Part shown: positions 16,606 through 64,000 of the stretch, piece by piece
Layout of the letters: every line of letters starts with the position of its first letter
Position numbering within the stretch: position 1 is the first letter of the stretch
NCBI GenBank assembly: GCA_013403045.1
Contig: GCA_013403045.1_3037.1
Length of the DNA: 64,000 nt
Reading direction: 5' to 3' (one strand)
From: Escherichia coli O157:H7
Lineage (GTDB): Bacteria; Pseudomonadota; Gammaproteobacteria; Enterobacterales; Enterobacteriaceae
Made by a program: the position numbers and the translations under genes
Notes under the pieces: model-generated
What the model saw: the letters and a program-made list of their open reading frames with translations, nothing else
Told to the model about the DNA's origin: nothing
The model's database searches: none

Positions 16606-17610
16606 ATGTTTAAAAAGTATAGCAGTCTTGAAAATCATTACAACTCTAAATTTATTGAAAAACTTTATAGCTTGGGATTGACTGGCGGCGAATGGGTAGC
16701 TCGTGAAAAGATTCACGGCACAAATTTCTCATTGATTATTGAGCGTGATAAAGTAACTTGCGCTAAACGTACTGGACCGATTCTTCCTGCTGAAGATTTC
16801 TTTGGGTATGAAATTATTCTAAAGAATTACGCTGATTCCATTAAAGCAGTACAAGATATTATGGAAACTTCAGCGGTTGTATCTTATCAAGTTTTTGGCG
16901 AATTCGCTGGACCTGGCATTCAGAAGAATGTTGATTATGGTGATAAAGATTTCTATGTATTTGACATTATTGTCACTACAGAAAGTGGTGACATGACTTA
17001 TGTCGATGATTATATGATGGAATCATTCTGCAATACATTTAAATTTAAAATGGCTCCACTTTTAGGTCGCGGTAAATTTGAAGAGCTTATTAAATTGCCA
17101 AATGATTTAGATTCTGTCGTCCAAGATTATAATTTTACAGTAGACCATGCTGGATTAGTTGATGCAAATAAATGCGTTTGGAATGCCGAAGCCAAAGGCG
17201 AAGTATTTACCGCTGAAGGATATGTATTGAAACCTTGTTATCCTTCTTGGCTGCCTAATCGCAATCGTGTAGCCATCAAATGCAAGAATTCTAAATTTAG
17301 TGAAAAGAAAAAGTCTGATAAGCCTATTAAAGCTAAAGTTGAATTGTCAGAAGCTGATAACAAATTGGTGGGAATTTTAGCTTGTTACGTTACACTGAAC
17401 CGAGTAAATAACGTTATTTCTAAAATTGGCGAAATTGGTCCAAAGGATTTTGGAAAGGTGATGGGGCTAACTGTCCAAGATATTTTGGAAGAAACTTCTC
17501 GTGAAGGTATTACTCTAACTCAAGCAGATAATCCTTCTTTGATTAAAAAGGAATTAGTTAAAATGGTGCAAGATGTACTTCGTCCAGCTTGGATTGAGTT
17601 GGTGAGCTAA
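16606..17610 (+). CDS. rnlB: RNA ligase 2
   Basis: 334 aa; KIHGTN nucleotidyltransferase motif I; synteny next to gene 24. Confidence 0.9.
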
Positions 17611-60190: not shown

Positions 60191-60484
60191 ATGGCCTTAA
60201 AAGCAACGGCACTTTTTGCCATGCTAGGATTGTCATTTGTTTTATCTCCATCGATTGAAGCGAATGTCGATCCTCATTTTGATAAATTTATGGAATCTGG
60301 TATTAGGCACGTTTATATGCTTTTTGAAAATAAAAGCGTAGAATCGTCTGAACAATTCTATAGTTTTATGAGAACGACCTATAAAAATGACCCGTGCTCT
60401 TCTGATTTTGAATGTATAGAACGAGGCGCGGAGATGGCACAATCATACGCTAGAATTATGAACATTAAATTGGAGACTGAATGA
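60191..60484 (+). CDS. rI: lysis inhibition regulator RI
   Basis: 97 aa with N-terminal signal-anchor MALKATALFAMLGLSFVLSPSIEA; length and position match T4 RI. Confidence 0.85.
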   Translation: MALKATALFAMLGLSFVLSPSIEANVDPHFDKFMESGIRHVYMLFENKSVESSEQFYSFMRTTYKNDPCSSDFECIERGAEMAQSYARIMNIKLETE

Positions 60485-62445: not shown

Positions 62446-62967
62446 ATGTTTATTTCAAGTGGAAGTGGTTTAATTCGTGTTGAATTTAAAAATGACATCT
62501 TTCTTATTCAAGGAGATGATATTATTAAAATGAGTTATGACGAAATCAAGAAAATTTGTCATGCTCTTGAAAGTCATGGAAAAGTGAACGCTGTTATTGA
62601 TATTGGCGATTTATGGGTGACACTTTATGAAGTATCCGAAGGATTTAACATTGAAGATGAAAATAACATTTTAGCTATTGATAAAAGAAGTGATTTGTTT
62701 GATGTATTAAAAGTTTATGAACAGTCAAATGGCGGAAGAAAAGCTGCATTGATTTATCAAAAACCGCATTCATGTGGAACTGCTTCAATCATTTCAAATA
62801 TTGAAGATGAAGTTGATACTTATATGTGTGTTTTAAAAGCTGGTGGTGACCGTCATCCGGATTTTATTTCTATTCGTCAAAACAATGGAGAAATTTCATT
62901 ATCAAAATCAGAAGCTGAAGCTATGATTAAGTATTTAACAACTGTTACGCCTTCAATGAAAGGATAA
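62446..62967 (+). CDS. hypothetical protein, paralog of 61882-62439
   Basis: ORF; C-terminus ISLSKSEAEAMIKYLTTVTPSMKG resembles ITFTKDEAIALKTYLDSVIPTMISK of the upstream gene. Confidence 0.5.
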   Translation: MFISSGSGLIRVEFKNDIFLIQGDDIIKMSYDEIKKICHALESHGKVNAVIDIGDLWVTLYEVSEGFNIEDENNILAIDKRSDLFDVLKVYEQSNGGRKAALIYQKPHSCGTASIISNIEDEVDTYMCVLKAGGDRHPDFISIRQNNGEISLSKSEAEAMIKYLTTVTPSMKG

Positions 62968-62969
62968 TT

Positions 62970-63431
62970 ATGATTATTAATGAAAACTCTTGGCACTATA
63001 AATTATTCAAATTGTTTAACGATGAATGGCAACGACCTAAGACACTATGCGCATATTTTTGGTCTATTGCCATTCCTACATTTTTCGTTTCTATTTTTGG
63101 ATGTGCTATACTCGTAGGGCTAACAATTATTTGTGCAGAAAGCCTACAACGTTGGCTTATTTTCGGTAGTTTATGGACTCTTCTTCCATCGGCATTTATA
63201 CTTGCACTTTTGGTTGTTTTACTTATTATCGGTTCATTTGTTATTCCTGCACATTTGCGTGAAAAATATAAAGATTATAAATGGAAAAAGGATTATGCTT
63301 TACACGTAGAAAATATTGATAGGGCGTATAAAGGTTTACCTCCTATTCAACCCAAGAAATCGGTTATCGTTGAATTTTTAAAAGCTCGTAAAGCTAAAGT
63401 ATGTCCTGTTATTGAATATAAGGCTGAATGA
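62970..63431 (+). CDS. membrane protein with two predicted transmembrane helices
   Basis: Two long hydrophobic segments. Confidence 0.5.
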   Translation: MIINENSWHYKLFKLFNDEWQRPKTLCAYFWSIAIPTFFVSIFGCAILVGLTIICAESLQRWLIFGSLWTLLPSAFILALLVVLLIIGSFVIPAHLREKYKDYKWKKDYALHVENIDRAYKGLPPIQPKKSVIVEFLKARKAKVCPVIEYKAE

Positions 63432-64000
63432 TGAAAACAGTAATGAAAAGCTATTTTGGTAGTCATCTTTATGGAACTTCTACTCCAGAATCTGATGTAG
63501 ATTTTAAAGAAATCTTTGTTCCTCCTGCTCGCGATATTCTTATTGGAAATGTTAAAGAGCACATGAGTAAAAATACTAACAACACATCATCTAAAAACAC
63601 TAAAGATGATATTGACCATGAACTATACAGTCTTAAATATTTCTTTAAATTAGCAGCAGATGGTGAAACTGTAGCATTGGATATGCTTCACACTCCACCT
63701 GAACTAGTGGTTAAATCTGATTTGCCTGATGTGTGGAAGTTTATTCAAGACAACCGTTCTCGTTTTTATACGACTAACATGAAATCCTATTTAGGATATG
63801 TCCGCAAGCAAGCTTCTAAATACGGTGTCAAGGGTTCTCGTTTGGCTGCATTACGTGATGTATTGAAAGTAGTTAATCAAATCCCTGAGCAGTGGATTGA
63901 TTACCAAGAAGATGGTTCTATTAAGCAGCGTCGCACTAAAGTTGAAGATATTAAGCATCGTCTTCCAGAAAACGAATTCTGTGAATGGGTGTTCCATAAT
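63428..64000 (+). CDS. nucleotidyltransferase-fold protein (partial; 3' end beyond window)
   Basis: Open frame from the ATGATG at about 63428 to the window end (191 codons, no stop). FGSHLYGTSTPESDVDF fits the GS ... DxD motif of Pol-beta-type nucleotidyltransferases. Confidence 0.5.
   Translation, partial: MMKTVMKSYFGSHLYGTSTPESDVDFKEIFVPPARDILIGNVKEHMSKNTNNTSSKNTKDDIDHELYSLKYFFKLAADGETVALDMLHTPPELVVKSDLPDVWKFIQDNRSRFYTTNMKSYLGYVRKQASKYGVKGSRLAALRDVLKVVNQIPEQWIDYQEDGSIKQRRTKVEDIKHRLPENEFCEWVFHN

Follow-up and report, generated by a model that had tools for sequence, protein, structure and literature searches.

The last open reading frame (ORF) in a 64,000-nucleotide stretch of DNA from Escherichia coli O157:H7 (GenBank assembly GCA_013403045.1, contig GCA_013403045.1_3037.1; the whole stretch is called the window below) is almost certainly the first part of nrdC.11, a gene of T4-like phages that encodes a nucleotidyltransferase (NTase) of the Pol-beta superfamily. 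This judgment covers the identity of the gene and the fold of its product jointly. By analogy with characterized members of the RlaP family, we consider it probable (roughly 60%) that NrdC.11 adds nucleotides to RNA 3' ends in a template-independent manner during tRNA repair. The same chemistry is suggested for NrdC.11 because the protein shares the catalytic core of RlaP and because genes of its clade are found in RNA-repair neighborhoods. The repair of tRNA by Pnkp and Rnl1 of T4 is the founding example of RNA repair. If the proposed role is true, T4-like phages would possess an enzyme that puts excised nucleotides back, which would show how these phages could withstand anticodon nucleases that trim the cut end as well.

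Identity and catalytic core of the nrdC.11 reading frame

Over its final 7.1 kb, the window matches Escherichia phage AR1 (NC_027983.1, Tequatrovirus) at 100% identity, and positions 62900–64000 align with several hundred other T-even genomes at 95–99% identity. In the AR1 record, the gene is annotated as AR1_099 (YP_009167910.1, 337 amino acids, product "nucleotidyltransferase"), and a homolog is present in 1518 phage records. The closest relatives of the protein are 96–99% identical, with 99% identity to the T2 protein. Its ortholog is T4 NrdC.11 (38.9 kDa, nrdC–mobD region; COG3541/PF10127), which is encoded at the same position between the mobD/rI block and nrdC.10. We found no substantive difference between the two; upstream of the AR1 gene lie the genes for a membrane protein and a y05I-like protein, whereas in some relatives (locus L004) nrdC.11 directly follows mobD.3.

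The earlier note on this DNA, made from the sequence alone, had described an ORF at 63428–64000 that runs off the end of the window, and the frame is indeed free of stops throughout. In RefSeq, translation starts with the ATG at 63428, and a second in-frame ATG follows at 63431, from which the translation reads MKTVMKSYFGSHLYGTSTPESDVDF... without a stop as far as position 64000. The window holds 191 of the 338 codons of nrdC.11 (57%, with the stop counted), whereas the other 146 codons and the stop lie past position 64000. When we extended the ORF beyond the window, the complete gene of 337 amino acids could be read from locus L001 (L001:6529–7542). The features of the reading frame are as follows, with residues numbered as in AR1 (AR1 residue = T2 residue + 1).

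63428..64000, + strand: 5' part of nrdC.11 (codons 1–191; AR1_099, 337 amino acids), covering the NTase domain, the long helix, and the start of the beta-rich insert, as assigned from the translation, Pfam, and an AlphaFold2 (AF2) model
63455..63505, + strand: FGSHLYGTSTPESDVDF, with the hG[GS] motif (G11 and S12) and the first two predicted catalytic aspartates (D23 and D25)
63614..63616, + strand: GAC codon of D63, the predicted third catalytic carboxylate, on the strand formed by residues 61–67 of the NTase core in the AF2 model
63680..63682, + strand: codon of D85 in a DMLH motif, a further conserved acidic residue that aligns with the glutamate of the "EWL" motif of canonical RlaP

The N terminus carries the sequence FGS (residues 10–12), in which the GS pair is followed after 10 residues by DVD (D23-V-D25). 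This spacing lies inside the range of the signature hG[GS]x(9-13)DhD, to which the earlier note had assigned the ORF. For conservation analysis, we collected 818 homologs at E ≤ 1e-30 from 1.8 billion cluster representatives and aligned 69 of them with 34–54% identity. All 69 homologs share G10, S11, S21, D22, D24, N56, D62, Y131, R230, K243, H247, R250, P267, and K278 (T2 numbering), and D84 (T2 numbering; D85 of AR1) is kept in 66 of the 69. In an hhalign comparison, the GS pair, the DxD motif, and D62 of T2 pair with the residues GSRAWGF...DSDYD...lDl of canonical RlaP. Because D62 (T2 numbering) is invariant and paired with the conserved aspartate of canonical RlaP, the third carboxylate is present; a lack of this second acidic motif had been named in the earlier note as grounds for giving up the assignment. 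The predicted enzyme thus retains an intact putative catalytic set (G11/S12, D23, D25, and D63).

The signature by itself is weak and nonspecific evidence. We counted three occurrences among the stop-free stretches of 60 amino acids or longer in the window, against 0.6 expected from residue shuffles. The two other matches (15643, + strand, and 17915, − strand) fall within the head-protein genes hoc and 24, and because these are structural genes the pattern is not specific when taken alone.

The real evidence is the match to Pfam family PF10127 (RlaP, "RNA repair pathway DNA polymerase beta family"). The window fragment matched this family with 41.9 bits (E = 1.3e-10) and the full protein with 44.7 bits, well over the Pfam gathering cutoff of 23 bits, and the family was also matched by all 69 of the diverse homologs. 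An end-to-end match was obtained to PHROG 388 "nucleotidyltransferase" (5.7e-137). A profile–profile comparison with canonical RlaP gave a probability of 92% (E = 5.6e-7) over residues 2–138. Together with a confident AF2 model that has NTases as structural neighbors (see below), these matches bear out the Pol-beta NTase fold that had been claimed from the motif. The earlier note had also asked for profile hidden Markov model and structure searches and had allowed for a match to a T4 protein unrelated to nucleotidyltransferases; the T4 protein that was matched, NrdC.11, has itself been predicted to be a nucleotidyltransferase (PMC1524935, PMC12776372).

NrdC.11 has several features in common with canonical RlaP, as represented by PfRlaP and PaRlaP from the rtcB-rlaP-rtcA operons of Pseudomonas (PMC12776372). 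Both belong to the same Pfam family, carry the GS...DxD...D set, and combine an NTase domain with a subsequent helical domain, and the bacterial relatives of NrdC.11 are found in RNA-repair neighborhoods. In contrast to canonical RlaP, NrdC.11 is ∼70–90 residues longer, can be aligned only over residues 2–138, and possesses a beta-rich insert (residues ∼152–210) and a distinct C-terminal helical domain. Because the Pfam and hhalign matches are confined to the N-terminal part, NrdC.11 belongs to a divergent subfamily of longer RlaPs and is not a typical member of the family.

RNA-repair neighborhoods of the clade and the proposed role

To place the protein in its genomic context, we scanned one genome per prokaryotic species with a 12-sequence alignment and examined the best 80 of 179 loci with a full-length relative (L036–L115), counting as neighbors all genes within 6 kb (12-kb windows). 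An RNA-repair gene was present in 38 of these 80 bacterial loci. Canonical RlaP was the most frequent (29 loci), followed by RtcB (13 loci), Pnkp ligase and Ro60/TROVE (6 loci each), T4-Pnk-like proteins (4 loci), and an Rnl1-like ligase (1 locus). When the neighbors were clustered, four families recurred; by their Pfam matches, these are canonical RlaP (253 bits, full length), the Pnkp ligase domain, RtcB, and Ro60/TROVE-vWA. Because such genes normally occur once per genome, we regard these frequencies as far above chance, by reasoning rather than by a computed statistic. On the viral side, a metagenomic phage contig encodes an Rnl1-family ligase 1.5 kb downstream of an NrdC.11-like gene, so that the linkage of the NrdC.11-like clade to RNA repair is seen in bacteria as well as in a phage.

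Of the 71 loci that could be assessed, 26 encode canonical RlaP directly downstream of the NrdC.11-like gene and on the same strand; the projected gap is 0–30 nucleotides save for one locus at 117 nucleotides. These tandems of a long and a canonical RlaP often lie inside RtcB, Pnkp, or Ro60 clusters, and the two proteins may work together or each on its own type of lesion. Canonical RlaP genes are also found in jumbo phages such as phiKZ; none was found in Tequatroviruses, and T4-like phages keep only the long form. The co-occurrence in bacteria suggests that the activity of the long form is not redundant with that of canonical RlaP.

The biochemistry of the family is known from PfRlaP and PaRlaP, which add one or two nucleoside monophosphates (NMPs) to the 3'-OH of RNA with a preference for Mn2+ (PMC12776372). 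Both enzymes favor the 5' half of a nicked tRNA mimic and are inactive on DNA and on E. coli proteins, and pretreatment with RlaP partly restores aminoacylation of a tRNA that lacks one anticodon-loop nucleotide (PMC12776372). T4 NrdC.11 is listed in the same study as an RlaP of unknown function (Carruthers et al., PMC12776372). For proteins encoded beside phage RNA ligases, the predicted role is to replace nucleotides removed by nucleases of the RloC type (PMC7824862).

On this basis, the following mechanism can be proposed for NrdC.11. The three aspartates would hold two divalent metal ions, probably Mn2+, and one or two NMPs would be moved from a nucleoside triphosphate to the 3'-OH of an RNA without a template. 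The enzyme would thereby restore tRNA anticodon-loop nucleotides lost to those host anticodon nucleases, of the RloC type, that cleave the tRNA and trim the cut end as well, and it would act ahead of the phage Pnkp (pseT) and the RNA ligases (rnlA and rnlB).

The same family evidence (the RlaP Pfam match and the hhalign alignment) would equally fit an addition to RNA 3' ends for another purpose, either the mending or maturation of the 3' CCA of phage or host tRNAs or the tailing of RNA to alter its stability. The RefSeq genome of AR1 contains ten tRNA genes, the metagenomic phage contig L033/L034 encodes a CCA-adding enzyme 5 kb downstream of its NrdC.11-like gene, and labeling by the characterized RlaPs extends to full-length tRNA and to species of rRNA size (PMC12776372). 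However, the repeated linkage to ligases, kinase-phosphatases, and Ro60 points to broken RNA and not to 3'-end maturation, and NrdC.11 gave no match at E ≤ 0.1 to the CCA-adding family PF01743 (PolyA_pol head domain). We therefore regard this alternative as unlikely and favor a function in the repair of cleaved tRNA.

Predicted structure and competing activities

An AF2 model calculated from the alignment of 69 homologs reached a mean predicted local distance difference test score (pLDDT) of 94.2 and a predicted template modeling score (pTM) of 0.82. In the model, residues 1 to ∼112 form an alpha/beta core, which is followed by a long helix (residues 118–150), a beta-rich insert (residues ∼154–208), which is the least conserved portion of NrdC.11, and a helical C-terminal domain. 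The C-terminal domain of the model is HEPN-like and rich in conserved basic residues, and the core is predicted to assume the alpha/beta NTase fold in three dimensions. The neighbors of the model in the PDB are mainly NTases (HalB, 3c18, KNTase, and LinB) and helical bundles of the HEPN type; Foldseek recovered the same families with weak E-values. Within a library of viral structures, the fold recurs in many "nucleotidyltransferases" of phages and giant viruses. PDB sequence searches with the protein alone or with the 69-sequence profile gave no meaningful match, and a solved RlaP structure, such as that of PfRlaP (December 2025), was not among the PDB matches.

HalB of the Hailong system (PDB code 9dbh) is the closest solved structure, and NrdC.11 might by comparison be an oligonucleotide synthase. 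Such an enzyme would make short (deoxy)oligonucleotides without a template, perhaps primed on a tyrosine of its own, that serve as a signal or a decoy, for example by holding a Hailong-type DNA-gated channel closed. The catalytic pair D21/D23 of HalB (named in the PDB title) lies at nearly the same position as D22/D24 of NrdC.11 (T2 numbering), and conserved tyrosines are found at Y131 (invariant), Y14, Y123, and Y227. In addition, the translation of AR1 nrdC.11 is coupled to that of the gene for a small membrane protein (ar1_100), which superficially resembles the HalA–HalB arrangement summarized in PMC13434031. There, HalB is described as forming tyrosine-primed oligodeoxyadenylate and as paired with the channel HalA, whereas NrdC.11 has no conserved membrane partner. 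Adjacency of a gene of the ar1_100 type to nrdC.11 is limited to relatives with 76% identity or more; L004 lacks the gene, and it was found in only 3 of the 80 bacterial loci, which are neighbored by RNA-repair genes and not by channels. We therefore rejected a Hailong-like pair of membrane protein and NTase. The two enzymes also differ in length (217 amino acids in HalB versus 337 in NrdC.11) and share 15% identity, with no match to the PDB at the sequence level even when a profile was used. PADLOC matched neither NrdC.11 nor the upstream membrane protein, with the reservation that it is uncertain whether the version used contains Hailong models. Taken together, a HalB-like activity is very unlikely.

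A further group of NTases modifies proteins or small molecules (ANT/KNTase/Lnu enzymes, the MNT antitoxin, and the AMPylating enzymes GlnE and DrrA), and a phage enzyme of this kind could, for instance, inactivate a host defense protein or a metabolite. Like the model of NrdC.11, the kanamycin/aminoglycoside nucleotidyltransferase ANT(4') and 3c18 ("nucleotidyltransferase-like protein") combine a Pol-beta NTase domain with a HEPN-like helical domain. The HEPN-like C-terminal domain, as in KNTase, and the dissimilarity of the C-terminal half to canonical RlaP speak for this activity. However, the structural matches are weaker than that to HalB and reflect the shared superfamily fold, and none of the families comes near its cutoff (NTP_transf_2 with 13.6 bits versus 21 bits; MntA, the only NCBIfam match of NrdC.11, with 13.3 bits versus 60 bits). 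Moreover, the RNA-repair neighborhood of the bacterial relatives points to RNA, and the characterized RlaPs left E. coli proteins and DNA unlabeled (PMC12776372). An activity on proteins or small molecules thus appears rather improbable. The antitoxin of a type VII MNT-HEPN system was rejected on the same MntA score, on the length of the protein (337 amino acids versus ∼100–140 amino acids), and because no gene for a HEPN toxin lies beside nrdC.11.

A cyclic-nucleotide synthase or CBASS role was rejected as well, since NrdC.11 had no match at E ≤ 0.1 to SMODS, Mab-21, or other cyclase Pfam families, no PADLOC match, and no effector-like neighbor. From the subtypes offered in the earlier note, the RNA- or tRNA-acting enzymes are therefore favored, whereas neither the cyclic-nucleotide synthases nor the minimal NTase antitoxins found a matching model.

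Several observations weigh against a role of NrdC.11 in tRNA repair. The Pfam model is covered only at positions 23–142 of 249 (protein residues 7–135), and the C-terminal 200 residues, including the beta-rich insert, cannot be aligned with canonical RlaP; because of this, the substrate could differ from that of canonical RlaP. By similarity, NrdC.11 is also placed in cluster 5, apart from the assayed RlaPs, and the addition of NMPs was demonstrated for PfRlaP and PaRlaP only (PMC12776372). The nearest solved structure belongs to HalB, a maker of DNA oligomers, a comparison that is biased because no RlaP structure is among the PDB matches. In bacteria, the NrdC.11-like gene usually accompanies canonical RlaP rather than replacing it, and in AR1 and other T4-like phages no RNA ligase or kinase gene is found beside nrdC.11. 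Finally, nrdC.11 can be deleted in T4 (PMC9825161), so no phenotype backs any role; in addition, one T4 record keeps only the last 39 codons of the gene. Conserved among T4-like phages, nrdC.11 is one of the dispensable genes of their early region.

Even with these points taken into account, nucleotide addition in tRNA repair remains our preferred explanation. In a more specific and tentative form, NrdC.11 might be a distinct "long" RlaP paralog with an NTase core, a beta-rich insert, and a HEPN-like domain of its own, whose activity perhaps does not duplicate that of canonical RlaP. The protein could then be the third enzyme of the T4 tRNA-repair pathway, next to Pnkp and Rnl1, directed against nucleotide-excising nucleases such as RloC; we consider this possible but doubtful. 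The neighborhood data give a concrete reason to assay NrdC.11 on trimmed tRNA and raise the question of a cooperation between long and canonical RlaPs.

Phage neighborhood and annotation

Three further genes of the window are relevant to the surroundings of nrdC.11.

62970..63431, + strand: ar1_100, encoding a protein of 153 amino acids with two hydrophobic segments (Kyte-Doolittle; PHROG 944 "membrane protein"), the stop of which overlaps the nrdC.11 start
60191–60484: rI (ORF list and AR1 record)
16606..17610, + strand: rnlB, encoding the T4-type RNA ligase 2 (tblastn with AR1 RnlB, 100% identity over 334 amino acids at 16606–17607), 46 kb from nrdC.11

The two-helix membrane protein that the earlier note had placed upstream of the ORF, in the region beyond rI, is found there as described. 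The hydrophobic segments of ar1_100 are centered on residues 34–51 and 71–89, and the C-terminal tail is basic. The TGA of ar1_100 overlaps the start codon of nrdC.11 at 63428 in an ATGA motif, and the two genes are probably cotranscribed. The ORF that precedes the membrane gene (62446–62967, + strand) matches Pfam T4_y05I_N (2e-34) and T4_y05I_C (7e-23), "y05I-like putative transcription factor," and is called hypothetical in RefSeq.

In T-even phages, nrdC.11 is followed by nrdC.10, which encodes an AAA-ATPase-like protein with subthreshold Pfam scores. The search for a downstream partner gene suggested by the earlier note led to nrdC.10, which we rejected as a partner. The gene is not beside nrdC.11 in ∼10 of 31 viral loci, is not recurrent in bacteria, and is set apart from nrdC.11 by putative transcription signals. 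A strong terminator-like hairpin (L001 7544–7563; AGGGAGCC-TTCG-GGCTCCCT and then TTTTTATTTC) begins 2 nucleotides past the nrdC.11 stop, and a promoter-like site ahead of nrdC.10 (L001 7594–7622) consists of TTTACA, 17 nucleotides, and TACTAT, with TG upstream. Because of the hairpin after the stop and the promoter-like site before nrdC.10, both located ∼443–521 nucleotides past the window end, nrdC.11 probably ends a transcription unit. Neither the upstream membrane gene nor nrdC.10 is a conserved partner of nrdC.11.

The spacing between nrdC.11 and nrdC.10 varies among T-even loci (L002–L031) from ∼110 nucleotides to 3.3 kb, and the interval looks like an insertion hot spot in which homing endonucleases were probably inserted. 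In AR1, a segE-like gene lies just past nrdC.10. In L033 (8974–9978) and L034 (1529–2533), the NrdC.11-like gene is directly followed by a gene with an AcrVA2-like domain (PF26125).

In AR1 itself, the neighbors of nrdC.11 are thus the genes for the membrane protein, the y05I-like protein, and nrdC.10, and no linkage to RNA repair is seen in this genome. Among the genes of this phage in the window, rnlB alone is an RNA-repair gene; it is a possible pathway partner of nrdC.11 if a functional link exists at this distance. AR1 also encodes pseT and rnlA, which lie ∼80 kb from nrdC.11 in the AR1 record.

The window differs from the AR1 RefSeq record at the junction 52800/52801, where a block of 6,062 bp (63895–69956 of the record) is missing with flanks that are 100% identical. 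The block contains part of ar1_129, e.3–e.8, ar1_137–139, segD, and all ten tRNA genes; ARAGORN found no tRNA in the window. The missing block may have been lost by deletion in a natural variant or removed by editing of the sequence.

The gene, fold, and family of nrdC.11 are already known, and the finding is correct but ordinary. The assignment of nrdC.11 as a nucleotidyltransferase dates from 2006 (COG3541; PMC1524935). The name RlaP and the hypothesis of a function in repair go back to 2016 (cited in PMC12776372 and PMC7824862), and the first biochemistry of the RlaP family was published in December 2025 (PMC12776372). RefSeq, Pfam, and PHROGs carry the nucleotidyltransferase annotation, and some GenBank records read "RNA repair pathway DNA polymerase beta." Possible additions of the present analysis are the bacterial tandem of long and canonical RlaP and the clade-specific C-terminal architecture; the tandem may already be contained in Burroughs & Aravind 2016.

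In many GenBank and UniRef entries, NrdC.11 has inherited the name "thioredoxin" from nrdC, and one entry reads "HNH homing endonuclease." Similarly, mobD.1 and mobD.5 of the RefSeq AR1 record (L001 4064–4252 and 5007–5540) are called [quoted passage not shown] a confusion of phage and bacterial gene names.

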